A stretch of DNA of 64,000 nucleotides from Nitrospirales bacterium. Lineage in GTDB: Bacteria; Nitrospirota; Nitrospiria; Nitrospirales; UBA8639. Shown in pieces: positions 1 to 24,395 of the stretch. Position numbers and translations under genes: made by a program. The stretch lies in the NCBI GenBank assembly GCA_041737015.1, contig JBGSSO010000381.1:1304-65303 (forward strand), in the 5' to 3' direction. The notes below the pieces were generated by a model. It was not told where the DNA came from. It saw nothing but the letters and a program-made list of their open reading frames with translations, and did not search any database. Each line of letters opens with the position of its first letter. Position 1 is the first letter of the stretch.

Positions 1-68
1 CCATTTTTTTTGCTTTTCGGAACAAAAACTTTCACTCACACAATCATCTTTCAACTTCCCTTTTTAAT

Positions 69-563: not shown

Positions 564-576
564 CATAGACGAACAC

Positions 577-665: not shown

Positions 666-799
666 GCCAGTCTACAGCAAAATCAGCTTCTCTCCGCAAT
701 TCGGAAATACTCCTAACAAGTCCGCGAGGTAGGCTCCCTTTCGGGCACGATTGACGCTCTCTCCAACGATTATTGCCCTCAGATGCCCCGAAAATAGAG

Positions 800-1072: not shown

Positions 1073-1171
1073 TGAATTGCCTTTATTTGTGAATCTTGCC
1101 ACGCTACCCCCTGATCCAAATGATCGGCCATTTGGGAACATCTTTTTCCCCATTTACAGGAGGGCTACCGC

Positions 1172-1492: not shown

Positions 1493-1574
1493 GTTGTGGC
1501 GGACGGACTCTTTCGCAACCCTATATCTCCCCTCTACCTGTAAAAACCGATTGGGGCTACCATCTTCTTGCTAC

Positions 1575-2136
1575 AGTGCTTAAGGTGGAAGTAGTGCGTG
1601 AGTCCCACTCGTAGCGCTGCAGGGGCCTCATGCGCCCGCAAGTAGACATCCTCGTACTTCACGCTACGCCACAGCCGTTCGACCAACACATTTTCGACCC
1701 ATCGCCATTTGCCGTCCATGTGGTACAGCCAACACATCACATTGGCGGATAACCGAGGGCTCTGCCGTGGCCTTGATCATGGCTTTGCGCTCAGTCATCG
1801 ACCGGATCCAAGCGCGGTAGCTGAAAATTCCTTCTCCATCGTCAACGGCCCAATCCTGGCATGCAGCTTCTGCTGAATCTGTTCATGGTCGGCAGCAGCC
1901 GCCACACAGGCTCCAAACACATTCTCTGCCTTGCCGATCAGTTGCTTCTTCAATTCTGAATCTGATTGGGATCTGCGGCAAACTGTTCAGCTAATTCAGC
2001 CAACGTGCAATCCACGTGGATAATGGCCAAGACCGCTTCAACCTTGAAGGCGGGAGAGTGATTCCGTCGTGTGCATGTTGCCATCTTCTGCTTCTTTCAT
2101 TAAAAAAATATAGCTCAGAAGATTATGTGAGGAACA
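1575..2136 (-). mobile_element. IS3-family remnant with internal deletion
   Basis: OrfA start at 2084 (MATCTRRNHSPAFKVEAVLA..TLAELAEQF). OrfB start (ERKAMI..SVIRQC) joins directly to its C-terminal MDGKxRWVxNVxVERLWRSVKYEDVYL, so most of the integrase core is missing. Left end begins TG at 2136. Confidence 0.85.
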
Positions 2137-2261
2137 CTTGATTTTTAAACTGAGGTAAGTAAAGTAGGGGAGGTTTAATTGTTGGAGTTGAATGCCTCAG
2201 TTCCCCTGATGAGGTCGTCATTATGAATTCGAGTTCGGGAATAGAAAAGGAGTTGTGAAAT

Positions 2262-3434
2262 ATGGCCATACCAAAATACTTGATGAAGGCTGTCTTCTTA
2301 CTTAGCATGATATTGATGGATTTCGGTTACGAATTTTCAATGGCAGAAGGTTTTACACCACGCGAAGTATGTTCTCCGGACCAATCGGAGTCATTGAAAC
2401 CTGTGCCCTGTACCGTTCGGTTTCTGTCTTACAATGTTCACGGAATTTCTCCGATCCTGAATTCCATGTATGTCGGGGTAGATGTGAGGAATGATGATAC
2501 CCGAAGTGGCCTGATGGCCTGGTTGCTCATGGATTATGATTTCGTATTATTACAAGAGGATTTTGAATTTCACCGGCAAATTGTCCATGAATTCACCTAT
2601 GAGCTCATAGAACAGGGGAACGGGCCACGGATAGCGCTGGCCCCATTATGGCTGGTAACCCTTCCCATTAAAATCGTCAATGTTGGGTTTCATTTATTTA
2701 ATAGTCCCGGCATTCCTTTCCGTGTCCCCTATGGGTCGGGGCTGACCATCGCTTCACCCTACTATAAAGCTGTGGAAGGGGGAGTCACACAGGTACCGCT
2801 TCCAGATTGTGAAGGATGGTTAAGTAGGAAAAATGATTGCTGGTCGACCAAGGGGCTTCTTCGCGTGCCGGTTCGTCTTCCAAATGGCGCAGAATTTGAC
2901 GTATACAATACGCACCTGGATGCCGGGAGAGATGAGGAAGACCGAATTGTTCGAAAAAAGCAGATTAAATTTCTTGCAAAATGTATCAAGAAATTATCGA
3001 AAGATCGGGCCTTCATTCTCGGGGGTGATTTCAACTCACAATATGACCATGGGGGAACTGAGGCCTCAGGAGAAGACTACCGAATTTTAAAACACTATCT
3101 CCTTGATGAGTTGGCTCTCAATGACAGCAATGCACGTCCAGAACCCAATGGTTATTGGAAAAATCGAGTGGACTACATTTTCTATCGAGAAGGTCAAGGG
3201 GCGAGGATAGAGTTAATCAGCCCTGGATCGGAAGATCAACGTTTCCGGCATCCTGTTAACCGAGGCAGACAATCTCCTAATGAAAAGTACGAAGATCTTC
3301 TTAGCGACCACCCTGCCATCCGCGCGGAATTCAAAATATTACCGTCGCCAGTCTCCGCTCCTAGTTCACGGGAGGGGGAAAGAGATTCGTGTGCAGAAGA
3401 ACCTGTGAAGGAGAAGATGGAGATAGTTTGGTAA
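2262..3434 (+). CDS. Endonuclease/exonuclease/phosphatase (EEP) family protein, sphingomyelinase-like, possibly exported
   Basis: Motifs SYNVHG, LLQEDF, YNTHLDAG, GGDFN, VDYIFY, SDHPAI; start may be the Met at 2283. Confidence 0.85.
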   Translation: MAIPKYLMKAVFLLSMILMDFGYEFSMAEGFTPREVCSPDQSESLKPVPCTVRFLSYNVHGISPILNSMYVGVDVRNDDTRSGLMAWLLMDYDFVLLQEDFEFHRQIVHEFTYELIEQGNGPRIALAPLWLVTLPIKIVNVGFHLFNSPGIPFRVPYGSGLTIASPYYKAVEGGVTQVPLPDCEGWLSRKNDCWSTKGLLRVPVRLPNGAEFDVYNTHLDAGRDEEDRIVRKKQIKFLAKCIKKLSKDRAFILGGDFNSQYDHGGTEASGEDYRILKHYLLDELALNDSNARPEPNGYWKNRVDYIFYREGQGARIELISPGSEDQRFRHPVNRGRQSPNEKYEDLLSDHPAIRAEFKILPSPVSAPSSREGERDSCAEEPVKEKMEIVW

Positions 3435-3833
3435 AACAAGCTGTAGTCGACTTTTTCAGCTCGTTCATAATACCTGCTGGAATCGCAATATACTGTCTCG
3501 CCAATTTGCCCAAAGACACCTAGGGTGAACCTTCCTGTTTCCTTTATCCGGCTACATTCATTCTCTGGCCAATAGGACAAATCCTGGCTATATTAAATTG
3601 TATCGCTGTTAAGGCCTGGTTACTGCTCACCTTACATTAGATAGATTTGGTGGGCTGGCATAGAACGTCCATACTTTGATCAAACCCAAATCTGCCAGAA
3701 GCCGGCTTAAAAAAAAGATTTCAAGGAAATACGTGAGAGCATAAGCAGAGATGGGAAAAGCTTTCATATCGATTTTTTTTCTTCATGAATCTCCTGGTAT
3801 TGGAAATCTACTCCTTACGCGTCGAGGTTTTGT

Positions 3834-4586
3834 ATGGGGTTGTTAAAAAAACTACGGGGGATGTTCATTCGCAGAAAAACAATACCCCCCAACCCACTTT
3901 ATGAAATTGTCCTGACTCATTTACAAAAAGATATCAATGAATCACCCCATGAGTGTATTCAAAAACTTTCTAAAGCATCGAAGGAAAAGATCGTTCAGGA
4001 AATTTGTAATGTTACAGAAACCCTATGGCAGGCTCCCGATAGAGTATTGGCCAACCGCGAAGGGTTGCTTGAGTCCATGTTGCACCAGGTGGATTGTGAA
4101 ATATTCATGATTGAGCCTGGCCATAAGCTATCCGGTTTCAATGGTATTTCTGGCGAATTAAAAGACTTCCTGCCTGAATTTGCCCAAAAACACATAGACA
4201 CTGGAGAATTGGACTGGAAGCAAAAAACGAGACCGACAAAAGATGAGGCCTATATGTTAGTGTGGGGCAAATGGTTGAGGGCCAATCAATATTGCAAAAT
4301 ATTTAATGAAATACGGCTTTATTTAAAGGATTACCATACCAATCAGGAGCGAGACTGGTTCTTTCCCCTTCAATGTGCCTCGGCAGCTTTTACAGAATAT
4401 AATTTTCGCAAAGAATATGGCCTAAAACAGATCATTGATGGTGTTCGAGCCCTACAATATGGCTCCTTTCTTGAAATCGTTTCAAAAGGCCACAAAGACC
4501 CCCTAGCAGAATGGGAAAAGACCTATAAAGAATTATTCCCTCTACAATCCCAATCCTATGCGGGGTCTAGGAATGGGAAAAATTAG
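3834..4586 (+). CDS. Hypothetical protein (AT-rich)
   Basis: 250 aa ORF with protein-like composition and no recognised motif. Confidence 0.7.
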   Translation: MGLLKKLRGMFIRRKTIPPNPLYEIVLTHLQKDINESPHECIQKLSKASKEKIVQEICNVTETLWQAPDRVLANREGLLESMLHQVDCEIFMIEPGHKLSGFNGISGELKDFLPEFAQKHIDTGELDWKQKTRPTKDEAYMLVWGKWLRANQYCKIFNEIRLYLKDYHTNQERDWFFPLQCASAAFTEYNFRKEYGLKQIIDGVRALQYGSFLEIVSKGHKDPLAEWEKTYKELFPLQSQSYAGSRNGKN

Positions 4587-4749
4587 ACCAATAAACAAAT
4601 ACCTTTTGTTCCCCTAAAAATCCAATCACCAGCAGACCAACAGATATCCCTCTGTCCACCCATGAATAACTGAAGCCACCGGCTCCACCTCAAATCTTTC
4701 GAGACTTTTCAGATGGTGATTCTATGTTTTTGTTTAATAAATGGGTGGC

Positions 4750-5487
4750 CTAACTACCACGTCGTGAAGGAGGGATTAGTTGACGGCGGGGGGCAGGTCG
4801 CGAAGGGAAGCGTTGAGGATCGGAGGTCACAATAATGTCACCGATAGAAAACTTTCCATTGACCCCATCATCATTCGTCATATCCCCAAAGCCGATTCTG
4901 GGTATCCCCACCCAGTCATTTCGTTTCAAAGCTGGCTTTCCATCAACGTACACCTTGGCAAATCTTCCACCCTCAACCTTTAAAGTGTAGGTGTGAAAGG
5001 TATCAGTCGTATCAATTTTAAACGTCCCTTTCTCGTCTCCCCATCCAATGGCATCCTCATCAAAAAAGATCATATGACTTCGTGGTCCTTCTGCAAAACT
5101 ACCGTCAGAGGTGTCGATAGAACCGTGAAACATAATGCCCGAATCAAGAAAATTATGCGGTTGCTCTACTTTGTGCACTTGTAAAGTAAACTCAATGGAG
5201 AACCCTGTCTCGAAGTCAAAAGGAACCTCTTTATAAAACCACATGAACGCTTTCCCTGGAAGTTGGTCGATGGCTCTTAAGACTCCAATCGTGTTGAGCG
5301 TTAAATGACTCCCATTGGTCACCACGTCCAATGGGCGAACAGCGTTGGTGGAAACCTCCCAACCTTGCTCTCCTGGCAACTGGGAACCTTTCAATGCAGT
5401 AGTTTGTCCGGACTGCACTCCTCCACATCCGGCAAGGAGGAACAACGTGACGAGCGTAAATTGCATAGTGACTTTCCCAATCCGCAT
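4750..5487 (-). CDS. Lipoprotein with a predicted ConA/LamG-like beta-sandwich
   Basis: Likely start ATG 5487 or 5466; lipobox LAGC; beta-rich with FHTYTLKV..AKVYVDG; the ORF-track extension to 5832 is unlikely to be coding. Confidence 0.65.
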   Translation of the reverse strand: MRIGKVTMQFTLVTLFLLAGCGGVQSGQTTALKGSQLPGEQGWEVSTNAVRPLDVVTNGSHLTLNTIGVLRAIDQLPGKAFMWFYKEVPFDFETGFSIEFTLQVHKVEQPHNFLDSGIMFHGSIDTSDGSFAEGPRSHMIFFDEDAIGWGDEKGTFKIDTTDTFHTYTLKVEGGRFAKVYVDGKPALKRNDWVGIPRIGFGDMTNDDGVNGKFSIGDIIVTSDPQRFPSRPAPRRQLIPPSRRGS

Positions 5488-6150
5488 GACAGACCCCTTT
5501 GCAAGAAGGCTCACGAAGAAGGCAAACCTACCCGAGATAGCCTTATGGTTCTTCCTGGATTTTAAATCACGACAGCGATGTATATGCCCTGATAGGCGTC
5601 CACTTACCACATTTCCCATAGATGGCCCCAATTCCCTAACTATTATAGATTGAAGGTACACATATACAAAAATCTCCCCATTCACTCTTGGCTTATGAAA
5701 AAGGATTCTACTATAGATCGCGCAGATTAAAAATGAACAATTTCCTCTGGAGACGGACATAGAAATATCCGAGGCTCCTCCCAATCCATCACCCGTTTTC
5801 TGACCCGAAGTCGGCCCATTGCCAATCAGCAAAAAACAATGCCCTCTCGATTCTCCCTGAAATAAAGGAATCAGGATTAGGAAAGGGTATTGATTGAATC
5901 GTCGTTGGAAAAGGAATGTTGGAACGGTATTCTAGAATGGACAGGAGCAGTTTGGATTCTCGGCGGAATACATGGCAGGACGATTGAATAATTAAAAGAT
6001 GTTACACCAACAGGCAAAACATGCAACCACTGTCTGGTTAACTGATCATACGGAATTGCTTCGCGTCATACGCAAGGGCACCCTCGATGGCGCGCGCAAG
6101 TACCGGGACAAAGACACCCCGTGGTCGGATAGGATGAAACATCGGCTTTC

Positions 6151-8652
6151 CTACTGATTCGGAAGTTCGGCTTGGTTCTGGATGACAAAATAGTCCAATT
6201 CCAATGCGCCGGTATCCGATAGCACCTCCAATTTGATCGTATGGGAACCGGCGGAGAGCGCCTGTGATAATCGCATCTCTTGCGTCACCTCATAATCCCC
6301 CAAGACGCCCCGATCGTCCAACTCGATCGTCGACTGGCGCCGGCCATCAACAGAGATCGTAACCTTATCATCAGCACTTTTGCCCTTTGTATATCTCAGA
6401 CGAATACTCGGGTTCGGAATGTTCTCGGTCAGGTGTAACACATAATTCGCTTCTCCCGTCCCTCGTATCGTGTGTCCCGCGGACGCCGTCTTGCGGGGCG
6501 ATTTCAGCAGGGTACCCGAGCGGTAGTCCTCAGCCTGCTGGGTCACAAGGTAGCCTATTGGTCCCAGCACTTCGATTTTGAAATCCGGGCACGAGGTATT
6601 GTGCCGCGAATAGGTAGGCCGGTCAAAACTCCAGGAATCGCCTGGGATCGTTGTCCATTCCTCATGGTTCGGATCGATCGGGTACGTCTGCACGACACCG
6701 GACGAGGATGCGGCCTGAATACGGGAGATATCGCTATTATCATTGGCCACCCACATGGAACGCATGGTAACAAACGGCGCGGTGAGGGTGTCATACGTCA
6801 CATCCGTCACGCGCACCGTCGTCTTGCCCGGTTCGGCCTGGAGCTGCAATACCGCGGACGATCCGTTTTTATATCGCACCTTGATGGTCATCGTGTGCGG
6901 ATCGATATCCAGCCTCTCGATCGGAATGAACGGAAACAAGGGGTCCTCTGCCGCCGGCCCAATAATCATCGAGGATCCGAAACAGACCCGCTCCTCCCGT
7001 CCCACCGGGGGTTGCGTAATAATCCGCGCGTATCCATTGGCATAGAGCACAAATATTTGCGGGGGGGCATGATCGTCGTCCGTCCGTTTGAGAAGCTGGA
7101 TAAAATCGTGGTCCGGCTCCGATGGTCCACCCACGATATTGACGGCCATCCCCGATTCATAGGGCCACCCGGACACATCCATGACGCGAACCGCCACATC
7201 ACCGTCGTTGTAGATGTCCTTACCGTCGAGATCCGCGATGTCCACAAAACCCGAGGTCACCAAACTCGCATACTGACCGGCGGCACCGGATGCGAGGACC
7301 TGAGGGGTATCCCACTGCGGTGCGGTCATTTTCGTCTTCGCCAGAAATTTTAAGCTCTGATTGTCTGCATCGTAATAGGCAATATTCGGATACCCTCTTG
7401 CCGTCACTCCCAGCGAGGCAAACCGTCCAACATCCCCCACCGCATCAAGAACGATCCCCACCGGCCATTGTGCTACGGCGGCGTCTTTGTAAAGGTATTT
7501 TAAATCCTTATTCGTGGCATCATAATACGCCACATGCAGAGCCCCATCCGGACCAAACGCCGTCGACGTATATTGACCGACATCTCCTGCCGCATCCAAC
7601 ACCAGCGGGATCGACCACCCCTGTTCATCCTGATAGATGTATTTTAAATTTCCGTTGCTCGCATCGTAATACGTGATATGCGGATAATGCCCTTCATACG
7701 CCCCGTTCATTTTCTCTGTCCAACCCTCATAGTACAGGCTCATTGAGGCGTAGGTCCCGACATCCCCGACGGCATCCAGGACCACGGGCGCCGACCATCC
7801 ATGCGTGTCGTCATTCATGACATATTTCAAATCCTTCGTGTCCGCATCGTAATACACCACATGCAGGCTGCCCGTGGGACCTATCGCCATGGCCGCCTGC
7901 TGCCCGACATCGCCGTTTGCGTCCAGGATCGTTGGGGTTGCCCATCCGCCCACTGCATCCGGATTGCTCTTGTAGGTATATTTTAAATTCCCGTGATCCG
8001 CATCGTAATAGACCACGTGATGCCGCCTATCCCGACTAATGCGCAGCGAGACGTATTTTCCGACATCGCCGGTAGCATCGACAATCTCCGGCTCGCGCCA
8101 CTTCCCATTTTCATCCCGGATAATATACATGAGGTTTTGTTTGACCGCGTCATAATAAGCCATAGCCGGTGGCGCGCCTAAGCCCACCCAATACCGGTCA
8201 GTCGGCGGATACGCCAGCGACACATATTGTCCGACATCCGCATTGACCGCATCCGGCGTTTCAATCGGATACCAATAGAAGCCAGGCGACTGCCAGACAA
8301 ATTTCAACTTCTGTTGCGCCGCATCGTAATAGGCAATCTGCGCCGTTGGCCGCATATCCCACGCCCGTTCGCAGTTGGTGAGATCTCCAATACAGAGATC
8401 CTTCTGCCCGCGTTGGAGTGGATAATAGGTCGGAAAGGTCGCAGTAATTTGATAGTCGGACACATAACCGCCATAGATCGGAATATTCACATTGTCCTCT
8501 TCCGCACACTGTGACGGAAAGCTCATATTCTTGGCGTAGCGCACCGTGGTTGCTCCCGCAGCATTAACGCTTTGCAGGCCCACCACCACACACAGCATCC
8601 CGATGATCGCCAGATTCTTTGTCTTACACATACGCCAAGCCATAACCATCAA
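6151..8652 (-). CDS. Secreted protein with 7 beta-propeller repeats and a C-terminal CBM6/35-like module
   Basis: Signal peptide; seven ~48-aa repeats (HxxYYDAxxxxLKY...W...LDAxGDVGxYxS); C-terminal QAEDY...HTIKLE...LELDYF. Confidence 0.8.
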   Translation of the reverse strand: MMVMAWRMCKTKNLAIIGMLCVVVGLQSVNAAGATTVRYAKNMSFPSQCAEEDNVNIPIYGGYVSDYQITATFPTYYPLQRGQKDLCIGDLTNCERAWDMRPTAQIAYYDAAQQKLKFVWQSPGFYWYPIETPDAVNADVGQYVSLAYPPTDRYWVGLGAPPAMAYYDAVKQNLMYIIRDENGKWREPEIVDATGDVGKYVSLRISRDRRHHVVYYDADHGNLKYTYKSNPDAVGGWATPTILDANGDVGQQAAMAIGPTGSLHVVYYDADTKDLKYVMNDDTHGWSAPVVLDAVGDVGTYASMSLYYEGWTEKMNGAYEGHYPHITYYDASNGNLKYIYQDEQGWSIPLVLDAAGDVGQYTSTAFGPDGALHVAYYDATNKDLKYLYKDAAVAQWPVGIVLDAVGDVGRFASLGVTARGYPNIAYYDADNQSLKFLAKTKMTAPQWDTPQVLASGAAGQYASLVTSGFVDIADLDGKDIYNDGDVAVRVMDVSGWPYESGMAVNIVGGPSEPDHDFIQLLKRTDDDHAPPQIFVLYANGYARIITQPPVGREERVCFGSSMIIGPAAEDPLFPFIPIERLDIDPHTMTIKVRYKNGSSAVLQLQAEPGKTTVRVTDVTYDTLTAPFVTMRSMWVANDNSDISRIQAASSSGVVQTYPIDPNHEEWTTIPGDSWSFDRPTYSRHNTSCPDFKIEVLGPIGYLVTQQAEDYRSGTLLKSPRKTASAGHTIRGTGEANYVLHLTENIPNPSIRLRYTKGKSADDKVTISVDGRRQSTIELDDRGVLGDYEVTQEMRLSQALSAGSHTIKLEVLSDTGALELDYFVIQNQAELPNQ

Positions 8653-8694: not shown

Positions 8695-8903
8695 GACCGG
8701 GTTTTGAGAGCCGGGTGTGATCCATACCCACATGCCCGCCTTCCGCCCTTGTCGTGTTTCATCTCAAATCATCAATCACGCCCAAAGGTCGCCTGAGTAA
8801 CACGCGGCACCTCGATGAGGTGTTCGTCCCCATGCAAGGACCACGGCAGTATCTCTGGCATACGGTTGATCCGGGCAGGCCGCCACGTTGAGAATCCGAC
8901 AAT

Positions 8904-11900
8904 TTACCATTTGGCCATCAACGTGAACTTGTTGCCTGAGAACCAGATACCGTGATCATCCACACGGTAGCTGTCATCGCCCTCAACGGCCACCTGCTTA
9001 GGCTTACCCTCCATGTGGATTGGCCAGCGCACATAAATTTTTCTATCCGTGTCTTTTGGCATATCCACATCCAGATTCAGTCTCTGATCGGTGTCATCCC
9101 ACTTCGCCTGCATCATCAGGTTTCCGAAATGCGTGGGAAAATTCGAAAGCGCAATTCCATCGCCCACAAGCCATTCGCGTGGGGTACCAAACAGCAGATT
9201 CAAGGTTTTGCTTTTATCCTCTTCCATCACGATAAGGCCACGGACAGAATTCACATAACCTGCCCCGACCCACGTATGTGGCATATCACCAATATACACA
9301 CCCTTGCGGCTGTCGGACAGAACCACCTCGGCAAACTCATTCCAATTGGCCGGACGCCTGCCCTTGAACAGAATTTCATGCAGGTCGAAGGCTTCCTTGC
9401 GATACCCTAGGGTTGCAAGAGCCAGAATATTCCGCACCTCGTAAGGCGTATAGGAATAGGGCGTAGAACCGGCATCCCGTTCTTTCACCATCCGGTAATA
9501 GTTCCGGAACGTCCGGTCCAGGATATCTGCAGGCAGAACGTGCCAGGCTTCCGTGGGAAACATGGCAATGGCAATGGAGGTCGGATCAGGAGTACCTTTG
9601 TCCGCATCCACAGGGATATAGTCGAGAGACTTCCAGGCGATAGTCTTTTCAATGGACTCCCTGACGCTTGTGGTGAAATTTTTCGACTCAGTCCTCGCCC
9701 AGTCAGCTAAAAACTTTCGACCCAGGATTTCCGCCATTTCAATCCCGTCCGCCCAACCGCGAATGGCCCAGAAATCATCCCAATAACTGTGCATCGGGGT
9801 AATGAACCCTTCATGACTGATGGACGGAGGTAAGATGCCCTTCAGGCGCTCACCGGCCTCAAGATGTTCATAATATTTCGGATCAAGTGTACGCTCCCGC
9901 AACGTGACAATGTACTTCATCGCCCGGTGCACAGCATCAAAATGCTTTTCCAGGAAATCTCTGTCACCGGTAAAACGATAGTACTCCATGATCGCATAGA
10001 TAAACTGACCCTGGCTGTCCCATTCAATATTCCTCCCCCAGCCGTCATACACCTCACCACTGGTGAAGAGAATGGGAGGCACGAGGCCATCGGGTTCCAC
10101 GCGTTCGGCATACCAATTCAGAAATGCCCTGACCTCCTCGAAAAAACCAAGCCGCATGAGCGTGGCGGAAATGATCGCGCCATCCCGCATCCAGGTCCGG
10201 TTGTAGCTGCGCGCGCCTGGCTGGATGACCACGCCATCGTTGTTCAACAGGATATAGGCTATCTGCGATTTCACGGTATTGACGACGGCCTTGTTGGCAA
10301 GCTCGAATCCCACACGGTTAAGCTTGTCGGTCCAGAAGGTTACATACTCCCGCCGCAACGTCTCGAAGTCCTCGGCAGTTTTCAGATTGGTCAGGGTCTC
10401 ATGCAGGGGAGCCGCAAACACCACCTCCTTGGATTCACCAGGTTTCAATTCAAAGGCATAGGTCCAGGCTGCCGAGAGAAGACCGGTCCCGGTCTGGTCC
10501 TCAATAGATTTGGCATCGCCCTTGCGGTCTGCACCGGCGCCCAGCACGACCCTGCCTCGCAGGTGGTTGGCAATATCACCATGAGCATATGGCGAGGCCA
10601 GGAAACTGTCGGCAGGCGAAAGGGCCAGGTAGGTGTTCTTGTCGTTGATCATCACCAGTTTCCCGGTTTCCCCCACGTACCTGATCGATTTGATAGGCGA
10701 CAATCCGCCATGTTGCCACTTGGGATTGATCTGAGCGGGCCTGACCGTGACGATGAGTTCCCCCTTCCGTACAGTATCGGAGCGATTTTCAAGCGTATGT
10801 CGCACATAGGTCATGCTGGCATCGACAGGCCCGCTGGTAATGGCCTCGGACCTGAAATAAAGTCCATTCCCGGTCTCCCATTTCACGATAGGAACCGGCA
10901 GATACCCGTCCTGCAATTCCTGTCGTATGTTCGCCGCGACGGCAGCCGAATACAGATTGTCACCCTCTTTGACATAAGGCATCAGCATGGGGCCGTCGCG
11001 CCGGGATTCCAGATTGCCATACTCATCGAATAGACTTTCCTCGCTATCCATGGGAAGACCCACCAGAGTCCAGTAGGTCTGATAGCCCCTGACATGTGGG
11101 GGATAATCGCCGAACGGCGCTCTCCGGGCATCAAACTGATAACGAACAAAAGGGGAGAACACTTCCTTGGGACCACGCAACGAAATATCGCTAATCCCAA
11201 AACCGCCCCCGGCTTTCATAGGGTTAGTCAGCACAAGCCTGATGTAGCGGACCTCTGATGGATCATGCGGAACAAAATCGGATTGCCCCTGTGATCCCGC
11301 CGAGACGGAGATGGAGGAGACCTCCTTCCATTCCTTTCCATCCATCGAAATGGCCATATCGACCGAACCGGCATATTGATCTCCCCAGTCGATACGCAAT
11401 CCGGAAATCGTTCTGGACTTGCGCAGGTCCAGAAGCAATTCTGCCCGGTCAACCGCCTCGCTTTTCCAGACGGTATCCTTGCGGCCATCCATCAGAGCCG
11501 GGGTATTCGCACCACCACCCGCGACCACGGAGATATCGACAATGTCGTCAGTCCCTTTGATATCAAATTCCCAGAGGGAATTCCCCCAGCTTGTCGCTCT
11601 CTCCCGTGTATCCAGCCGGACATATCTCGCGGAAACGGGTTGGATGTAAATATCATCCATCTGCCCGTCACCGTCGTCGTTCACATACACCGTCGTCCAC
11701 ACCTTGGCATCGGTCGAAACCAGGAGGTTGTATTTGTTCGAATACCCGTTCTCCCAATGCAGGGTAAAGCCGGTGATCTCAACGACCGTTCCAAGATCGA
11801 CGAGAGCCCATTCCTCATCCTTTGCCTGACTGGACCAGCGGGTCGTCATGTCACTATCCGCCAGGTAACCCGGCAAAAATTCATCGCTCTGAATCGAGGA

Positions 11901-12023
11901 AGCGGTCACCCGCCATGTGTCCTTTGCCGGTATATTGGATGCTGCCAACGCGGCTCTCACGGGCAACATCAGCAGGATCAGGATAGAAAACAATGTCAAC
12001 AAACTGCTCTTGTAAAAGGTCAT
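8904..12023 (-). CDS. Secreted discoidin (F5/8 type C) x2 plus six-hairpin (alpha/alpha)6 glycosidase-like protein, paralogue A
   Basis: Start ATG 12023 overlaps the upstream stop (TGATG); signal peptide; two discoidin modules (DSDMTTRWSS, DGRKDTVWKS); catalytic-domain motifs YNRTWMRDG, GILPPSISHEG, SYWDDFW, YTPYE, IGDMPHTWVG. Confidence 0.85.
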   Translation of the reverse strand: MTFYKSSLLTLFSILILLMLPVRAALAASNIPAKDTWRVTASSIQSDEFLPGYLADSDMTTRWSSQAKDEEWALVDLGTVVEITGFTLHWENGYSNKYNLLVSTDAKVWTTVYVNDDGDGQMDDIYIQPVSARYVRLDTRERATSWGNSLWEFDIKGTDDIVDISVVAGGGANTPALMDGRKDTVWKSEAVDRAELLLDLRKSRTISGLRIDWGDQYAGSVDMAISMDGKEWKEVSSISVSAGSQGQSDFVPHDPSEVRYIRLVLTNPMKAGGGFGISDISLRGPKEVFSPFVRYQFDARRAPFGDYPPHVRGYQTYWTLVGLPMDSEESLFDEYGNLESRRDGPMLMPYVKEGDNLYSAAVAANIRQELQDGYLPVPIVKWETGNGLYFRSEAITSGPVDASMTYVRHTLENRSDTVRKGELIVTVRPAQINPKWQHGGLSPIKSIRYVGETGKLVMINDKNTYLALSPADSFLASPYAHGDIANHLRGRVVLGAGADRKGDAKSIEDQTGTGLLSAAWTYAFELKPGESKEVVFAAPLHETLTNLKTAEDFETLRREYVTFWTDKLNRVGFELANKAVVNTVKSQIAYILLNNDGVVIQPGARSYNRTWMRDGAIISATLMRLGFFEEVRAFLNWYAERVEPDGLVPPILFTSGEVYDGWGRNIEWDSQGQFIYAIMEYYRFTGDRDFLEKHFDAVHRAMKYIVTLRERTLDPKYYEHLEAGERLKGILPPSISHEGFITPMHSYWDDFWAIRGWADGIEMAEILGRKFLADWARTESKNFTTSVRESIEKTIAWKSLDYIPVDADKGTPDPTSIAIAMFPTEAWHVLPADILDRTFRNYYRMVKERDAGSTPYSYTPYEVRNILALATLGYRKEAFDLHEILFKGRRPANWNEFAEVVLSDSRKGVYIGDMPHTWVGAGYVNSVRGLIVMEEDKSKTLNLLFGTPREWLVGDGIALSNFPTHFGNLMMQAKWDDTDQRLNLDVDMPKDTDRKIYVRWPIHMEGKPKQVAVEGDDSYRVDDHGIWFSGNKFTLMAKW

Positions 12024-13147
12024 CAGTGATCTCCCTGACTTGTCGTGAGGTTTCCGGAAGGTTTGTGTCGAAGCTCCTTTCCGTCTTTCCCGAAAAGATG
12101 GCAGTGGTCTGCCGCAATACACACCGTCAGCTTGTCTCCCTTCGCGAAACCGAAATCGCCGGATGCACGACATATCAGCAGGTCATCGGCATCCGGCGTT
12201 TCCAGATAGACATAGGAATGGCTACCCAGTGGTTCCACCAGCTTGATCTCTGTCTCGACGAAGTTGTGCTTACCCCCCGTCGCCAGATGCTCCGGACGAA
12301 TGCCAAGCGTGACCGGAGTATCCGGGGGCAGCTCTCCGGCAACGCCATTCACCTGGATCGTCGTTCCGCTTTGAAGTCGTACCGTTGTGGTATCCCGGCG
12401 GCTCTCGACCACGAACCCGGCCAGGAAATTCATGGCCGGCGAACCGATAAAGCCGGCAACAAAGCGGTTGGTAGGATACTTGTACAGTTCATTGGGGGAA
12501 CCAGTCTGTTCAATGCATCCATCTCTGAGAACCACGATCCGATCCGCCAGTGTCATGGCCTCGACCTGGTCATGCGTGACATAGATCATCGTGGTCTCAA
12601 GCGTCTCGTGCAGTCGTGCAATCTCATGACGCATCTTCACACGAAGAGAGGCATCCAGATTGGAAAGCGGTTCATCAAAGAGGAAGATTCGCGGACGCCT
12701 GACGATCGCCCGGCCAATAGCCGTGCGCTGGCGCTGCCCACCGGAAAGCTCTTTCGGTTTCCGCTCAAGCAGCGCGGTCAGGCCGAGTGTTTCGGCAGCC
12801 GCGCGCACCGCCTGGTCAATTTCTGCCGCAGAAGCTCCGGCAATTTTCATCCCGAAGCTCATGTTGTCATAGACGGTCATATGCGGATACAGCGCATAGG
12901 ACTGGAACACCATCGCAATCCCGCGCTCGGAAGGCGAAAGCCTCGAGACATCGGTCTCACCGATTTTGATGGTTCCCTTATCGATCTCTTCGAGGCCCGC
13001 AATCGTACGCAACAGGGTTGACTTGCCGCAACCCGAAGGGCCGACAATCACCGCAAACTCCCCATCGGGCACATCAAGATCAACCGCAGACAACACGGCC
13101 GTCTTGCCAAAACTCTTGTGAATATTTCGCAGGGTCAGACTAGCCAT
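12023..13147 (-). CDS. Sugar ABC transporter ATP-binding subunit (MalK/UgpC family)
   Basis: Start MASLTLRNIHKSFG at 13147; Walker A GPSGCGKST; signature LSGGQRQR; DEPLSNLD; C-terminal TOBE region. Confidence 0.95.
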   Translation of the reverse strand: MASLTLRNIHKSFGKTAVLSAVDLDVPDGEFAVIVGPSGCGKSTLLRTIAGLEEIDKGTIKIGETDVSRLSPSERGIAMVFQSYALYPHMTVYDNMSFGMKIAGASAAEIDQAVRAAAETLGLTALLERKPKELSGGQRQRTAIGRAIVRRPRIFLFDEPLSNLDASLRVKMRHEIARLHETLETTMIYVTHDQVEAMTLADRIVVLRDGCIEQTGSPNELYKYPTNRFVAGFIGSPAMNFLAGFVVESRRDTTTVRLQSGTTIQVNGVAGELPPDTPVTLGIRPEHLATGGKHNFVETEIKLVEPLGSHSYVYLETPDADDLLICRASGDFGFAKGDKLTVCIAADHCHLFGKDGKELRHKPSGNLTTSQGDH

Positions 13148-17741: not shown

Positions 17742-18574
17742 CCTTTGACACTTCCCGCAAGGTTTCCGCTCATATAAAAACGCTGAAGCGCCAGAAAAAG
17801 AACCAGGACCGGTGTCACGGTGATCACCGCCCCGGCCATCATCAGCTCAACATCCTGCACATGCTCCCGTGACAAAGATGCCAGCGCAATTGGCAGGGTA
17901 TATTTGTCACTGTCGGTCAGGACGATCAGCGGCCACAAAAAATCATTCCATGCAGCCATAAAGGTAAACAGCCCCAGGGTAATCAGAATGGGTGTCAGTA
18001 ACGGCACCACGACCGACCGGAAAATGCGTAGTTCACTGGCCCCTTCAATCCGTGCCGACTCGATCAGTTCCGTCGGAATGGACAAGGCATACTGCCGTAC
18101 GAGAAATATACCAAATATGCTGGCCACAAAAGGGATCAGCACACCGATCCAGCTATTCACCAGCCCCATCCCTTTCAACATCAGGAACAGCGGAATCATG
18201 GACACCTGGGCCGGAATGACCAGAGCGCTTAGAAGCCCGCGGAACAGCAATTGCCTCCCCTTAAATTCCAATTTGGCAAACGCATAACCGGCAGCCACAT
18301 TAAACGTGAGGGACAACAATGTAGCCGCCGATGCGACAAACAGGGAATTCAAGAAGTTTCTTCCCATGCTGGAATATTCAAAGAGCTTGATATAATTGGC
18401 GAGCGTCGGATGCTCCGGCAACAGCGGCGGCGGAAAATTGCTGGCCTCTCCCGGAGCCATAAAGGACACACTCAGCATCCACAGCAACGGGAACAAAGCA
18501 AACACGGAAAGGAACGACAGCCCAATATTCGTCCCGGATCCTCTCCACATATTTCTCATCGGCTTACCGATCAT
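17738..18574 (-). CDS. Carbohydrate ABC transporter permease (MalG/UgpE type)
   Basis: Six TM segments; EAA-type motif ELIESARIEGAS; WNDFLWPL. Confidence 0.95.
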   Translation of the reverse strand: MIGKPMRNMWRGSGTNIGLSFLSVFALFPLLWMLSVSFMAPGEASNFPPPLLPEHPTLANYIKLFEYSSMGRNFLNSLFVASAATLLSLTFNVAAGYAFAKLEFKGRQLLFRGLLSALVIPAQVSMIPLFLMLKGMGLVNSWIGVLIPFVASIFGIFLVRQYALSIPTELIESARIEGASELRIFRSVVVPLLTPILITLGLFTFMAAWNDFLWPLIVLTDSDKYTLPIALASLSREHVQDVELMMAGAVITVTPVLVLFLALQRFYMSGNLAGSVKG

Positions 18575-18611
18575 ACAGAATGTATAGCTCCCCCCTCTTC
18601 ATGTGCATTCC

Positions 18612-19079
18612 GTCTCCCATAGTCCGACGCCTGCCGTCTGCCCCAAGAAAGGACGTTCTCATCACAACACATTCTTACTATAGTTATTCCAATTAATTTC
18701 AAAAGTCCTCTTTATCTGTGTGCTATCCTCGCCGCTGCATGACGCCTGCCGGCTGGCCAAAGGGAGGACGCTCTCATTCCCCGGCGGACCTTGTTTGAGT
18801 CCTACGACAAAGCTCAGGACAGGCTCCGCGAGTTGGTCCGCTTTCCCCAAGTTTGCGTCCGTCCCCTCTGATGAGGCCAGACGGGGCGTCCATGGTTTTG
18901 GGTCCTTTTGCCGAAACAAAAGGACCTCGCCAGCCGGGGCGAAACCCGGCAACATAGAAAAACCCCTCGATACGAAAGTTAATTGCACAAGTTCGAAGTG
19001 CGAATTAGCCATCGTTTTTCCTCGCCAACTCCAAGATGGACTCCCGATTATCATTAAACCTGTAAGCCCAGAACCAAAC
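18612..19079 (+). repeat. ~460-bp structured dispersed repeat, copy 1 (MITE/REP-like)
   Basis: Aligns along its length with 21318-21770; internal inverted motif CAATTAATTTC (18690) / GAAAGTTAATTG (18974); hairpins at 18901-18926 and 18933-18950. Confidence 0.9.
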
Positions 19080-19961
19080 TCACACTCCACTCCCATACCG
19101 GCGCATCACCACAAGCTGGCCGATTGCCGCCACAATCATAAATACAAAGAGAATAAAGGCCACGGCGGATGCCGATCCCAGGCTCCACCATTTAAAGCCT
19201 TCTTCATACATCAGATAAATAATGCTGAGCGTACTCTGGACGGGTCCTCCCTGTGTCATCACATAGGGTTCGGCAAAAAGCTGGAAGTATCCGGCCATGG
19301 TTAGCACCCCGACGAGAAACAGTGAGGGAATCAGAGAAGGCAGAGTGACATTGAAAAAACGCTGTCGGGCATTGGCCCCGTCAATCCGCGCAGCCTCATA
19401 CAAATCGCCGGGTATCGCCTGGAGGCCCGCCAGAAGAATGATCATATTGTAGCCAAAATTTTTCCAGACCGCGAAAAGGATGATGGACGGCATGGAAAAA
19501 TGCGGATCACCCAGCCAGTCCACAACGGGGAGACCCAACCAGTCGAGGGAATAATTGATCAAGCCATAACGGGTATGCAGGAGATATCGCCAGATCACCG
19601 CCACGGCCACAATCGTCGTCACGACGGGCGCAAACAGTGCCGTCCTGAAAAATCCTTTGAACCGAACCATCTGCCCATTCAGCAACAGAGCCCCCGCCAG
19701 TGACACGAACACCGAAAGGGGCGCACCGACGAGCACGAAATACAGCGTATTACCCAGGGCCTGCCAGAACAGCGGCCGTTGCAACAGCTCAATATAGTTT
19801 TGGAAACCCACAAACCGGAGGTTGCTAAGGTCGGCCAGAGCATAGATATCAAAGTCCGTCAGACTGAGGGCCAAGGCAGCCAGCACCGGCAGAAAGAAAA
19901 AGACGGCAATGATCGCCAGCGCCGGCCCGGCAAACAGCCAACCTGCCACAGAGGATCTCAC
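19080..19961 (-). CDS. Carbohydrate ABC transporter permease (MalF/UgpA type)
   Basis: FVGFQNY; EAA motif LYEAARIDGAN; multiple TM segments. Confidence 0.95.
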   Translation of the reverse strand: MRSSVAGWLFAGPALAIIAVFFFLPVLAALALSLTDFDIYALADLSNLRFVGFQNYIELLQRPLFWQALGNTLYFVLVGAPLSVFVSLAGALLLNGQMVRFKGFFRTALFAPVVTTIVAVAVIWRYLLHTRYGLINYSLDWLGLPVVDWLGDPHFSMPSIILFAVWKNFGYNMIILLAGLQAIPGDLYEAARIDGANARQRFFNVTLPSLIPSLFLVGVLTMAGYFQLFAEPYVMTQGGPVQSTLSIIYLMYEEGFKWWSLGSASAVAFILFVFMIVAAIGQLVVMRRYGSGV

Positions 19962-21268
19962 GACTCTGCTCCCTCTTCCCGCGCCAGCATCCAGCGACGC
20001 TTTTCAAGAATGCGATCGATCCGGCCATCCAATTCACGCGCCGCCTCGGCAGCCGTCCATTTCTCATGCACCGCACGCTCCGTCACCATGCGCAATTCCT
20101 GCACGATACGTTCCCACTCAGGGATTTTCGGTGCCGGAAGCGCGCGCTCAAGCTGCTCCCTGAAGGCCACAAGATACGGATCTGATTCAAGCCGGTCTCC
20201 GCGCCAGCTTGACCGCCGAGGCGGCAGATTGCCACTGATCTCGTAAAACTGTTGCTGGATGGTTGGACGGGACAGGAATTCAACAAGCCGGAATGCCGCA
20301 TCTTTATGCGCTGAATGTTTAAACACCACCAGGCTGGAACCGCCTGCTGTCGAGGCACCCGGACCCGAAGGCCCCGGCAGGATGGCCGTCATCCAATCAT
20401 CCTGCAGATCGGTAGGCAACCGGCGACGGAATTCACCAATATTCCACGGCCCGGTCAAATAGAAGGTAAAGTGGCCGCGTGCAAATTCATCCCACACATT
20501 GGCAATGTCGGTTTCACTGGAAGGCGGTGCCAGTCCCTTGCGGAAAAAGTCGAGATAAAAATCAAGGGCGGCTACCAGCTCAGGGCTGGAAAAATTGCCA
20601 TACCGGTCACCGTCCCGCAGCAAGGGTACCCCTTGTTGAAGAGCAAGAGACACCTGCATCTCATATTCATTCAGTGGCACGTAAAAGGCAAAGTTGTCTT
20701 TTCCAACATGGTGCTTCACGGCCGTAGCGGCCTGAATCCATTCAGCCCAGTCACGTGGAGGGCGAACAATCCCGGCAGCCCTGAGAATATCCTGCCGGTA
20801 AAAGAGGAGCCGCGTATCCACATACCAGGGCACCCCGTACAGTGTCTCGCCAACCCTGTTCGTCGCCCAAATACCCGGGAAATAATCCTCTTCCTTAATC
20901 ACGGAAGAAGCACCTGCCATCTCGTCCAGCCCGGCAACGGCATCAAGCGCCGCAAACTCCGCTATCCAGGTATTGCCCATCTGGGCCACATCAGGCAGGG
21001 CGTCTCCGGCAAAGGCCGTCAGCAGTTTTTCATGGGCCGAGGTCCAGGGAATCTGCTGGACTACGACACGAACCCCAGGATTCTCGCGTTCAAATTCTTT
21101 GAGCACCTCAGGAACAATCTCCCCTTCACGGCCCATAGCCCAGAACTTAATTTCCAGAATATCATCCTGCCCGCTCCCACTTGTGCATGCGGCAAACATG
21201 GCCGCCAGCAGAATGAAGGCAACTACAAACATCCCCGCTGTTTTTTTTGACGATATTTTTTTGGTCAT
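19958..21268 (-). CDS. Sugar ABC transporter substrate-binding lipoprotein
   Basis: Likely start ATG 21268 or 21298; lipobox FAAC; family-1 SBP motifs (LPDVAQMG, YGVPWYVDTRLLFYR); the ORF-track 5' extension runs into the repeat. Confidence 0.92.
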   Translation of the reverse strand: MTKKISSKKTAGMFVVAFILLAAMFAACTSGSGQDDILEIKFWAMGREGEIVPEVLKEFERENPGVRVVVQQIPWTSAHEKLLTAFAGDALPDVAQMGNTWIAEFAALDAVAGLDEMAGASSVIKEEDYFPGIWATNRVGETLYGVPWYVDTRLLFYRQDILRAAGIVRPPRDWAEWIQAATAVKHHVGKDNFAFYVPLNEYEMQVSLALQQGVPLLRDGDRYGNFSSPELVAALDFYLDFFRKGLAPPSSETDIANVWDEFARGHFTFYLTGPWNIGEFRRRLPTDLQDDWMTAILPGPSGPGASTAGGSSLVVFKHSAHKDAAFRLVEFLSRPTIQQQFYEISGNLPPRRSSWRGDRLESDPYLVAFREQLERALPAPKIPEWERIVQELRMVTERAVHEKWTAAEAARELDGRIDRILEKRRWMLAREEGAES

Positions 21269-21317
21269 ACAGAAATATAGGGGTCCCGGTTCATTCATGT
21301 GTGTCTCTGAAAGATTT

Positions 21318-21770
21318 GTCTCCCCTGCTCCGACGCCTGCCGGCTGGCCCAAGGGAGGGACGCTCTCATCACAACTCGTTTTCCCTAAAGTGATTCCAAT
21401 TAATTTCCAAAGCCATCTTTATCCGTGTGTCCCCCTCGCCGCTGCGGTGACGCCTGCCGGCTGGCCCAAGGGAGGGACGCTCTCATCCGCAGGCGGACCT
21501 TGTTTGAGCCCGGCGAGTTGGGCCGCCCTCCGCAAGTTTGCGTCCGTCCCCTCTTATGAGGCCAGACGGGGCGTCAATGGTTTTGGCCACTTTTGCCGAA
21601 ACAAAAGTGGCTCGACCGCCGGGGCGAAACCCGGCAACACAGAAAATCACGTTGCTACGAAAGTTAATTGCACAAGTGCGATGTGCGAATCAGCCACCGT
21701 TTTTTTTCTAGCCAAATCCAAGATGGACTCCCGATACACATCCTCAAGCTGTAAGGCCAGAAACATACAT
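21318..21770 (+). repeat. ~450-bp structured dispersed repeat, copy 2
   Basis: Direct-orientation homologue of 18612-19079; inverted motif at 21397 and 21659; hairpins at 21586-21611 and 21618-21635. Confidence 0.9.
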
Positions 21771-22435
21771 TCTGAATGATCCTATTTTTCCCAACCTGTT
21801 GTCATGCTTTTCAGTATGCTTTCTGAATGAATGATCGGCTTTGGCATCAGACGGTAATCCGAAGATTGTCCGGATATGAGGTAGCCTTACAAATGGCACG
21901 GCATTGTCAAGACGACCGGGGATTGACTGGCTGGAGCGTTGAATATGAAACCGTCCGGTAATATTTGTTCCAAGGGAATACCGACCATTTCTCCCGGTCT
22001 CAGGCGTTTCAGGTCTGGAGGGAGGTAGCATACGCAAAAAAGATAAAGTAACGATTCTGGGATGGAGCCTTATTTCCTTTGCACCCCTAGGGGCTCGCCG
22101 CTCAGACGCACAAGATAAAAATCTTCCGCGACTTCAATTTCCATTTTCCTCGCCAGCCCTCCCGCTCGCCGCTGAAGCCAGTTTTGGGGGAAATCGGCTG
22201 AAGTTACGACTGACAGACAAGGGAAACCCTACAAAAGCTTAGTCTCTGACCGAAAATTTGTCCGAAGATAAATGCTGTCCGCCGAAGCGCCTGGCGAAAG
22301 TCGTTATAGATGTATTGTGTGCGAAAACCGCCGAGTTCCCCTGCCAGGTCCTCACATGATGGGCTTGAGTAGCAGTTAGCCGGAATGAGTGGTAGATTGG
22401 TCGCACAAGAAAAATTAACGACTCCGGCCAACTTT

Positions 22436-23704
22436 TTATTTTTCCAGCCCCTTTAAATCCTTCAAGAATTTCTCCAATGCTTTCCTATATTGAACTGGAT
22501 TGTCCCATTCACGGAAATCCCCAATTGTTTTTTCCACCACATCCGCTTTGCGGTAATGATTCCACCTTTGTAAAACGAAATCATCTATTCGAATAGGAAC
22601 TAAAACATCAGGGTCATTGCCAGTTCTTCTATGGGAATCTTCCTTCTGAAGAGCCCGTTCAATTTCACGAATCACCGCAGGTGAGTTAAGAGATTTTTCG
22701 CTACAAATCACAATCAGCTTATCGTAAACTCGAATAGCTTCATCAATTTCTTTCATTAGGGGACGCCCAATAGTCGCATCTTCTTTCCATCGCCAACATC
22801 GAACCCCTTCCCCTTGCAGATCATTGTACAAGCGTTGTGCAAATAGATCATCGGACTCGGAAAAGGAAATAAAACACTCATAGAACTGGACAGGATTTTC
22901 CTGTGAGGCTCGTATCAGGGAAGGGAGAAACTCAATGAGAACTTCAGGAAGTCCGCAACCAAGTAAAAAAGTTAGAGGTAAAGAGCCAGACTTTTGAAGA
23001 GTGCGGTGATCGATTGTACACGGCCCCAAAAATCGGCAATTAGAAAGCTTCGCATCCTTTAAATTAGCACCACCAAAAATAACTTCTTTTAAGGTAGATT
23101 TTTCAAGGTCAGCCTCGCTCAAATTGACCCCACAAAAATTTACATCGACAAGCATTGTTTGTCTCAGATCGGCACGATAAAGATTTCCCCCAGAAAAGTC
23201 TGCATTATGAAAGTCCGCATGAGAAAGGTTAGCTCCTGAAAAATTTGCTCTACGAAAGCGTCCCTGACCACCGTTCACCCCTTGCAAATTGGCTTGAGAT
23301 AGGTTGGCATCAAATAAAACCGTTAAACTCAAATTTGCGTTAGTTAAATCTGATTCCTGAAGTTCTGTGTTGCCAAAATTGGCCAAGGGAAGACGTGCTC
23401 CGGATAGTATAGAATTACGGAGGAGTGATCCAGCAACGTCTGTCTCCTGAAGATCTGCCCCAGCAAGATTTGCTCCACAGAGACGCACCACAGAAAGATC
23501 GTATCCACGAAGATTTCGCTGAGACAGGTTTGCTTCGGTTAAATCAGGGATGGAGGAATCTGTTTCAATGAAATTTAGGCGTCCACCATCTGTCCAAGAG
23601 GGGTCGTTCATGCTTTCGGGCCAACGGATAGGATGATCCTTCCTCCACGCATTCCAGGCTTCCCTTCCCTGATCTAAAATCTTTAGATGCTCCGCATTAG
23701 CCAC
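22436..23704 (-). CDS. Pentapeptide-repeat plus C-terminal TIR-domain protein
   Basis: GTG start at 23704 with GAGG RBS; A(N/D)Lxx repeats; TIR motifs CFISFS, DLQxxGVRCW, DKLIVICS, REIERAL. Confidence 0.9.
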   Translation of the reverse strand: MANAEHLKILDQGREAWNAWRKDHPIRWPESMNDPSWTDGGRLNFIETDSSIPDLTEANLSQRNLRGYDLSVVRLCGANLAGADLQETDVAGSLLRNSILSGARLPLANFGNTELQESDLTNANLSLTVLFDANLSQANLQGVNGGQGRFRRANFSGANLSHADFHNADFSGGNLYRADLRQTMLVDVNFCGVNLSEADLEKSTLKEVIFGGANLKDAKLSNCRFLGPCTIDHRTLQKSGSLPLTFLLGCGLPEVLIEFLPSLIRASQENPVQFYECFISFSESDDLFAQRLYNDLQGEGVRCWRWKEDATIGRPLMKEIDEAIRVYDKLIVICSEKSLNSPAVIREIERALQKEDSHRRTGNDPDVLVPIRIDDFVLQRWNHYRKADVVEKTIGDFREWDNPVQYRKALEKFLKDLKGLEK

Positions 23705-24395
23705 GAATTTTCCCTCATGAAGTGCAAGATTTCGTTTGTGGGATACCAATAGTCACCATACTAAATTGGATCAATAAATGGAATGCGTGGCAATAACAAT
23801 AAATTTAAGAGAAGGATCTCCCTAAATACTCTTCACAGTTTTCATTCATCAAGTTTGTATAGTCATTTTTGCCATTGAAAGAAATCAGATCTGGTTATCC
23901 CACATGAGCCACCTACACTCTCGCTATGGCTCATCCGTTGCGGCTTGAATCTCTGGGGCCATCTATCTCATGTCACATTTTGGGGCAATGCTCGACAGGA
24001 CATCCTCCCCGATGATCGAAACCGCACCCACTTTCCTTGAACTGCTGGGCAAACGGTGAGAGACTGATGGACTTCTTTTTCCAAGGGGTAGATAGTCCCA
24101 TCCAAAATTCACTACCAATCCACGCATTGGCATTCGAACGTGAATGCCCGGGTGCAGAGTCTTTCCTGGGTTACACCTTCGAAAGCCTTTTTTTGGGAAA
24201 CAACCCATGATGCTTCCTTCACGCTAAAGAAGTGTAAGGCTCGAGGGGTCTGTCAACACGGAAGCACGCACCTCTGGCCTTTATCACAAAAATTGTGAAA
24301 ATCCCATGATCATTATTGCGGCCTTCATCGGTGCATTGGCGGGAGAAAACAGGAATAGAATAAGGCCAAATACTGGATGAGAGAACCGTGAGGAA

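Follow-up and report, generated by a model that had tools for sequence, protein, structure and literature searches.

The window analyzed here is a stretch of 64,000 nucleotides from a Nitrospirales bacterium (assembly GCA_041737015.1, contig JBGSSO010000381.1), in which two copies of a structured, intergenic repeat lie within an ABC-transporter operon. The genes of this operon, assigned by Pfam, are located on the minus strand and comprise the solute-binding protein gene (21268-19958, ATG at 21268), the gene of ABC-transporter permease 1 (19961-19080), that of permease 2 (18574-17738, start codon at 18574) and, as a further operon neighbor, the gene of a 1051-aa protein with a discoidin-type domain. 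By repeat search and pairwise alignment, the two homologous stretches described in an earlier note, which had been made from the sequence alone, were recovered and found to be ~80% identical over roughly 510 nt. In minus-strand reading, the similarity covers about 19075-18569 in one stretch and 21781-21265 in the other, and in each case it reaches the start codon (ATG) of the following gene. Copy 1 (18569..19075, plus strand; delimited by pairwise alignment, the repeat families D1-D6 and Pfam) fills the gap between both permease genes, and copy 2 (21265..21781, plus strand) fills the gap upstream of the solute-binding protein gene.

Both stretches are composites of about 510 bp around a core of roughly 190 nt rather than a local pair. 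Composite copy 1 is made up of five parts (flank module, core, spacer, partial second core end and a short segment reaching the start codon of permease 2). The core of copy 1 (18741..18962, plus strand, 222 nt; nhmmer match C165:20044-20265, profile positions 2-200) includes a nested insert of ~24 nt at ~18799-18823, and the core of copy 2 occupies 21449..21647 (plus strand, 199 nt; nhmmer match C165:22752-22950). The partial second core ends lie on the plus strand at 18625..18664 (copy 1; repeat families D3/D4) and 21332..21372 (copy 2; nhmmer match to profile positions 160-200, families D3/D4). The internally duplicated motif of ~38 bp that the earlier note had reported is therefore real (18625-18664, 18740-18767, 21331-21372 and 21448-21475) and duplicates the end of the core. 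The borders drawn there were not retained: the inverted CAATTAA(C)TTTC motifs, between which a core of ~275-295 bp had been placed, are both present in only 2 of 69 copies, precisely the window pair, and the conserved unit is instead the core of ~190-220 nt. A 17-nt inverted end of the composites, GATCATWCAGAATGTAT, occurs at four places of the genome only.

For the collection of genomic copies, the window's own assembly (4.64 Mb, 405 contigs, 50% G+C; ~90% nucleotide identity with Nitrospira sp. DJ and other Nitrospirales metagenome-assembled genomes) was searched iteratively with nhmmer. Of the sharply bounded core of ~190 nt, 66 complete or nearly complete copies and some 20 fragments were detected, all intergenic and many at contig ends. 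Four related genomes each hold at least 40 copies, scattered on both strands around their complete chromosomes. Among 103 copies with assigned context, 30 lie between tandem genes in co-orientation, 27 between tandem genes in anti-orientation, 31 between convergent and 15 between divergent genes. No protein family recurred beside the copies in the BLASTP comparison of neighboring proteins, and no conserved promoter or terminator was found on either side of the core. Neighbors include housekeeping genes (SecB, a JmjC ribosomal oxygenase and the ABC transporter of the window) as well as accessory genes (Fic, REase-ARP, a DUF433/DUF5615 pair, an FRG-domain protein and Phd/YefM). Element and gene alternate in the same orientation in C102, C48, C131, C204 and L025.

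Several features of individual copies were recorded alongside. In L025 (positions 1-8000; Nitrospirales NPIRA03), seven equally oriented cores in 8 kb alternate with Fic/DOC, REase-ARP, the DUF433/DUF5615 toxin-antitoxin pair and an Lcl_C protein, a cassette-like order in a genome that has no integron integrase. Inverted copies with the heads outermost bracket single genes or gene pairs at C105:2661-4265, C397:13745-16417, C187:17378-19537, C72:9933-11619 and C222:15909-18614; most of the bracketed genes are hypothetical, the others encoding an FRG-domain protein and JmjC with an SDR. A tRNA gene directly adjoins an element copy in a congener (L152, 2040-2130). In the window, a pentapeptide-repeat protein with a C-terminal TIR domain is encoded just upstream of copy 2 (22436-23749, minus strand). 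Open reading frames of 144 aa (18662-19096, minus strand) and 194 aa (18720-19304, plus strand) run through copy 1. Such reading frames over element copies cluster together in BLASTP; they are repeat artifacts that could be mis-annotated as a protein family.

The fold of the core was defined by mutual information combined with a hand-defined structure, which was tested explicitly on 53 copies; RNAalifold on a MAFFT alignment had given only a partial structure and was replaced. Five helices were obtained on the plus strand of the window, in the order of a long P3-P4-P5 arm followed by a 3' head composed of AAUGGUUUUGG, hairpin P2, a linker and hairpin P1. In the 53 copies, 90.4% of the cells were paired, as compared to 34-46% when the partners were slid by one to three columns, and two-sided changes occurred at 32 of the 52 pairs. 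Neither the observed pairing nor the covariation was reached by any of 500 shuffles. Folding yielded -101.3 kcal/mol (z -4.5) for the plus strand and -98.4 kcal/mol (z -3.6) for the minus strand, and the minimum-free-energy fold of the copy 2 core reproduced P1, P2, P3 and P4. Together with the strand asymmetry and the cross-phylum head described below, the pairing test strongly supports selection on RNA or single-stranded DNA (ssDNA) structure, as proposed in the earlier note.

The hairpin that the earlier note had put forward first is P2, GGTCCTTTTG-CCGAAA-CAAAAGGACC, at 18901..18926 (plus strand) and 21586-21611 in copy 2, preceded by the invariant AATGGTTTTGG. The three compensated pairs seen between the window copies, its lower three pairs, also alternate across the 53 genomic copies (GC:31/CG:19, CG:19/UA:19 and CG:33/AU:19), while neither the UUUUG/CAAAA part nor the loop varies across phyla. 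P1, GCCGGG-GCGAAA-CCCGGC, is the 3'-terminal helix of the core on the plus strand (18933..18950; copy 2, 21618-21635). It had been called invariant, which holds between the window copies but not in other copies, where it co-varies (CG:40/GC:9). The third stem of the earlier note, CCGTC..CCTC/GAGG..GACGG, can be drawn in the window copies, yet just 65.5% of its cells are paired family-wide. As it is weakly paired and competes with P3 and P4, it was rejected as a conserved structure and replaced by the long-range helix P3.

P3 joins the 5' strand GACGCC-TG-CCGGCTGGCC (18741..18758, plus strand) to its partner GGCCAGACGG-GGCGTC (18875..18890, plus strand), which was identified by mutual information and the pairing test. 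In P3, 90.8% of the cells are paired, with two-sided changes at 12 of 17 pairs; written as RNA, it is GACGCC and CCGGCUGGCC with GGCCAGACGG and GGCGUC. It encloses P4 (GGGAGGACGC with GCGTCCGTCCCC; 18762..18866, plus strand), which in turn encloses P5 (GGCGGACC at 18783-18790 with GGTCCGC at 18835-18841, plus strand). The P5 loop, UUGUUUGAG...GCGAGUUGG, is nearly invariant. In copy 2, the corresponding strands lie at 21449-21466 and 21560-21575 (P3), 21470-21480 and 21540-21551 (P4), and 21492-21499 and 21520-21527 (P5).

A further pairing, P1', involves the head. Read on the minus strand, the P1 loop (UCGx) is complementary to the linker between P1 and P2 (x'CGA), with covariation both among the copies of this genome and across phyla. 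In the latter comparison, UA:32/CG:5 was counted at pair 21-37 and four pair types at another pair, and the head structure including P1' was 94.1% paired. Because the connecting segments are so short, P1' may represent an alternative conformer rather than a simultaneous pseudoknot.

A nested mini-insert of ~24-30 nt (CCTGTCCTGAGC..GTCGAAGG) was observed in the P5 loop in the window (18799-18823) and in contigs C315, C102, C316 and C392. The same mini-insert lies in the opposite orientation inside P2, on its 5' side, in C5 and C53. It looks like a smaller repeat inserted into a larger one.

The polarity on which the structure is maintained was assessed in 136 unique copies, of which this genome contributed 57 and other genomes 79. 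On the plus polarity, helix mismatches comprised 272 G-U against 137 A-C, or 31 against 11 when counted by position. The two-to-one bias towards G-U was present in both subsets and in all four classes of neighbor-gene orientation; therefore, the preference is intrinsic to the element and not imposed by read-through transcription. The Rfam TwoAYGGAY matches on relatives of the element, described below, lie on the same polarity. In the window, the favored strand is antisense to the transporter operon.

Orthologous sites were compared between related genomes, as the earlier note had suggested for empty sites and target-site duplications; empty and filled sites were found, and no target-site duplication was recognized. 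Most comparisons were confounded by synteny breaks and flanking modules, the clean cases being contig L072 and the congeners sharing a convergent site. The composite corresponding to copy 2 is absent from the related contig L072 upstream of the same binding-protein gene and present in L100. Three tandem cores occupy the place of copy 1 in L033, and L085 carries an extra element-plus-gene unit relative to C48. At one convergent gene pair, six congeners could be compared: the site is empty in G118, with a spacer of 9 nt; G102 and G134 have 80-86 unrelated nt; the element is present in G126, G154 and, inverted relative to these, G077. At every filled site, sequence homologous to the ancestral spacer lies immediately next to P1, i.e., the element has a sharp terminus at P1. 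Genome G094 has about 1.1 kb of other sequence at this site (L161, G094:C1:1991220-1992321).

These comparisons bear on the function suggested by the window itself, since both copies are highly structured and end at a start codon, as a cis-regulatory leader or riboswitch of ABC sugar-transporter genes would. Such a role is very improbable. The relative L072 has the same operon without copy 2, the favored strand is antisense to that operon, and about 60 copies lie beside unrelated genes in all orientations, with 31 of 103 between convergent gene ends. With no constant position or orientation and no coherent gene set, this candidate was rejected.

The distribution of the element beyond the genome was determined in two ways. 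A scan with an exact 21-base P2 pattern matched more than 117 loci, mostly from Nitrospirales and some from Lysobacter, Rhodanobacteraceae, Acidiferrobacterales and Sedimenticola. The covariance model R1, which represents the head only, detected the head in 8 of 151 sampled Nitrospirota genomes, all from the window's own family and with 3 to at least 32 copies each; two congeners lacked it, while their sister genomes hold 19-28 copies. The head was also present in 33 of 201 sampled Gammaproteobacteria, with 1-15 copies, often as close inverted pairs. The gammaproteobacterial elements share with the Nitrospirales core the head, the P5 loop (AACUCG...CUCRAACA, minus-strand reading) and the overall layout; their P5 stems are entirely different around the same loop. 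In one gammaproteobacterial lineage, the body scores as TwoAYGGAY (RF01731; 43.5 and 34.2 bits, with 43.5 bits in L043). This distribution is patchy and multicopy, and therefore argues for horizontal spread.

Hundreds of contigs matching the core were found in metatranscriptome assemblies from estuaries and groundwater, with the summed depth peaking over P2; since these contigs carry no direction, may include carried-over DNA and do not cover genes of this organism, they indicate presence in RNA libraries only. Taken with the nucleotides that are unpaired and nevertheless invariant across phyla, the pseudoknot-type or alternative pairing at P1 and the preference for one strand, this signal would suit a multicopy family of functional RNAs. 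Each copy would then be a gene or an RNA derived from a 3' or 5' untranslated region, acting as a trans-acting small RNA or a protein sponge whose head and P5 loop bind a cellular protein. The TwoAYGGAY body of the gammaproteobacterial relatives, with loops CAUGGAUG that resemble CsrA sites, points the same way, but inspection of the alignment revealed no GGA hairpin loops in the Nitrospirales core. Moreover, copies lack a conserved promoter or terminator, the family is absent from most Nitrospirota and from some congeners of copy-rich genomes, and its orthologous sites are either empty or filled. On balance, a functional RNA family is unlikely.

The observations are best accounted for by an undescribed family of non-autonomous, modular, intergenic structured repeats of one Nitrospirales family, of which the window copies are members; we put the probability of this interpretation at about 0.65. 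Of the two readings offered in the earlier note, a possibly undescribed structured non-coding RNA or a non-autonomous mobile element, the latter fits best, given the dispersed copies in all orientations, the empty and filled orthologous sites and the lack of coding capacity or a linked enzyme. With respect to Rfam, the element is indeed undescribed: no family matched the whole window at the gathering threshold or positions 18400-22000 at E<=5. A literature search by literal sequence and for Nitrospira repetitive elements returned nothing relevant.

A number of results weigh against mobility as the explanation. No target-site duplication is recognizable at the convergent orthologous site, and at the copy 2 site the only candidate is ambiguous, within T-runs. 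The core ends are not inverted repeats in the alignment of copies. The copies are old, with a median identity to the best paralog of 88% and a maximum of 94%, so the family may no longer be active, and the presence or absence at sites could partly result from deletion or recombination and not from insertion. The loops and junctions conserved across phyla and the abundance in metatranscriptomes would also fit an RNA with a cellular function.

The search for an enzyme adds to these points. No TnpB, to be expected with an IS200/IS605 palindrome-associated transposable element (PATE) or omega-RNA, is encoded in the genome (PF07282 is absent). Three Y1_Tnp loci were found (C31, C115 and C111), none on an element-bearing contig, which does not match a repetitive extragenic palindrome (REP) with its associated tyrosine transposase (RAYT). 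The only intact Y1 transposase is of the IS200 type (C31:10600-11130), and its end hairpins, CCCCGCC..GGCGGGG, are unrelated to the repeat; the copies on C115 and C111 are degraded. The genome's only reverse transcriptase belongs to a diversity-generating retroelement (DGR; C129:~8700-12300, L119) with bAvd and a target of the FGE-sulfatase fold, and is likewise unrelated. The integron integrase TIGR02249 is absent from G000, G001, G003, G004 and G006 and scored above the cut-off only in G002 and G005. Overall, no autonomous insertion sequence (IS) shares the ends of the element, as neighbor proteins do not recur and no link to TnpB, an integron integrase or a reverse transcriptase emerged.

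Two specific mechanisms were weighed against these data. First, the element could be a folded ssDNA site for an HUH transposase or an integron-like tyrosine recombinase, which would explain the strand-specific fold and the arrays of genes and elements. The strand asymmetry is independent of the direction of transcription, the same-orientation arrays contain accessory genes (Fic, REase-ARP and the DUF433/DUF5615 pair), and a cassette-like unit was gained or lost between genomes. Against this stand the lack of an integron integrase in five of the seven genomes searched, the missing TnpB, the unrelated IS200 ends and the scatter of copies along entire chromosomes, on either strand and without obvious replichore bias. 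In addition, the core ends do not pair with each other as the R boxes of attC sites do, so the copies do not resemble attC sites or clusters of attC sites lacking integron integrases (CALIN). A site of this kind is improbable.

Second, the cross-phylum module lies at the 3' end of the favored strand, has a sharp terminus and is common to lineages with different bodies. This arrangement recalls a short interspersed nuclear element (SINE), in which plus-strand RNA would be copied by a reverse transcriptase recognizing the shared 3' head while different 5' bodies ride along. However, no RVT_1 match was obtained in G001, G003, G126 and G154, which hold 19 to at least 48 copies. Reverse transcriptases occurred in 14 of 37 head-positive and 7 of 22 head-negative genomes, i.e., without enrichment, and none lies near any head copy. 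The sole reverse transcriptase of this genome is that of the DGR, and neither an A-tail nor a target-site duplication was seen. ARAGORN detected no tRNA-like cloverleaf of the kind that a tRNA-derived SINE would contain in 18400-21900. A SINE-like retroelement is thus very doubtful.

A broader possibility, which we regard as tentative, is that the P1-P2 head is the common end-piece of undescribed non-autonomous mobile elements in several phyla, carrying different bodies and recognized as a folded single strand by a trans-acting enzyme. The head would then consist of the U-tract, the invariant CUUUUG-CCGAAA-CAAAAG hairpin, and P1 with its loop-linker pairing. The bodies would be the P3-P5 rod in Nitrospirales and TwoAYGGAY in Gammaproteobacteria and other lineages. 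The enzyme would not be a recognizable transposase, integron integrase or RVT_1 reverse transcriptase. If true, this would also explain the orphan TwoAYGGAY motif.

For the family of non-autonomous Nitrospirales repeats, the following course of events is conceivable. New copies would derive from sources whose single strand, either RNA or ssDNA, has to fold in the plus polarity, with the head serving as a handle for a trans-acting factor. After insertion, copies would drift and be reshuffled by recombination with one another, which could give rise to tandem arrays, gene-plus-element cassettes and composites such as the window pair. The window copies themselves are operon passengers and not a dedicated regulator. 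They are probably transcribed in antisense polarity within the transporter mRNA. As this polarity retains a folding energy of about -98 kcal/mol, an incidental influence on mRNA processing or polarity is possible, by analogy to REP sequences in malEFG.

Interspersed repeats in bacteria are, as a rule, simple palindromes for which an associated transposase is known. The present repeat is RNA-like, with five co-varying helices, pseudoknot-type pairing and invariant loops, and its end module is common to Nitrospirota and about one in six sampled gammaproteobacterial species, with no enzyme assignable. In practical terms, it fragments genome assemblies of nitrifiers and creates spurious open reading frames; it also occurs within operons and beside genes of defense and toxin-antitoxin systems. 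Through it, the orphan TwoAYGGAY motif may be connected to a mobile lifestyle. The head is the obvious handle for finding a partner protein, which could reveal a new mobilization mechanism or RNA-protein system.

Among catalogued families, the TwoAYGGAY RNA motif comes nearest to the element; it is listed with cis-regulation 'n' (Weinberg et al. 2010; PMC2864571). Those gammaproteobacterial elements that share their P1-P2 head with the repeat carry a TwoAYGGAY-scoring body in the same polarity. The layouts are similar, with a long closing helix around inner hairpins, and in both cases the copies are dispersed, have no function assigned to them and are not consistently upstream of genes. In contrast, the window remains below the gathering threshold of 43 bits, which is reached by the gammaproteobacterial relatives alone. 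The Nitrospirales arm is a single coaxial P3-P4-P5 rod with the loop UUGUUUGAG..GCGAGUUGG and no AYGGAY loops in the alignment, and the Rfam model does not include the head module.

With REP sequences, bacterial interspersed mosaic elements (BIME), REP doublets forming hairpins (REPIN) and enterobacterial repetitive intergenic consensus (ERIC) sequences, the element shares a high copy number and an intergenic, non-coding, hairpin-forming nature. Like them, it is found in both orientations, frequently directly after stop codons and within operons, and forms mosaic composites and tandem clusters. It differs in being much larger, in having a fold of several helices whose loops and pseudoknot-type pairing are retained across phyla, in its intrinsic strand preference and in that no RAYT gene is flanked by it. 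Miniature inverted-repeat transposable elements (MITEs) such as Correia/NEMIS, RUP and Nezha are also short, non-autonomous, multicopy and polymorphic for insertion between relatives. Unlike these, the core lacks terminal inverted repeats, target-site duplications and a parent IS sharing its ends, and its compensatory changes keep local helices and not merely an end-to-end foldback. The BOX elements of Streptococcus pneumoniae resemble it in their modular build of head, body and sub-modules in variable number, in being transcribed with their neighbors and in having no known mobilizing enzyme, whereas sequence and fold are unrelated and the present element is distributed across phyla. In its behavior, the element is thus closest to REP/BIME, BOX and MITE-type elements, and its closest catalogued relative, a distant one, is TwoAYGGAY.

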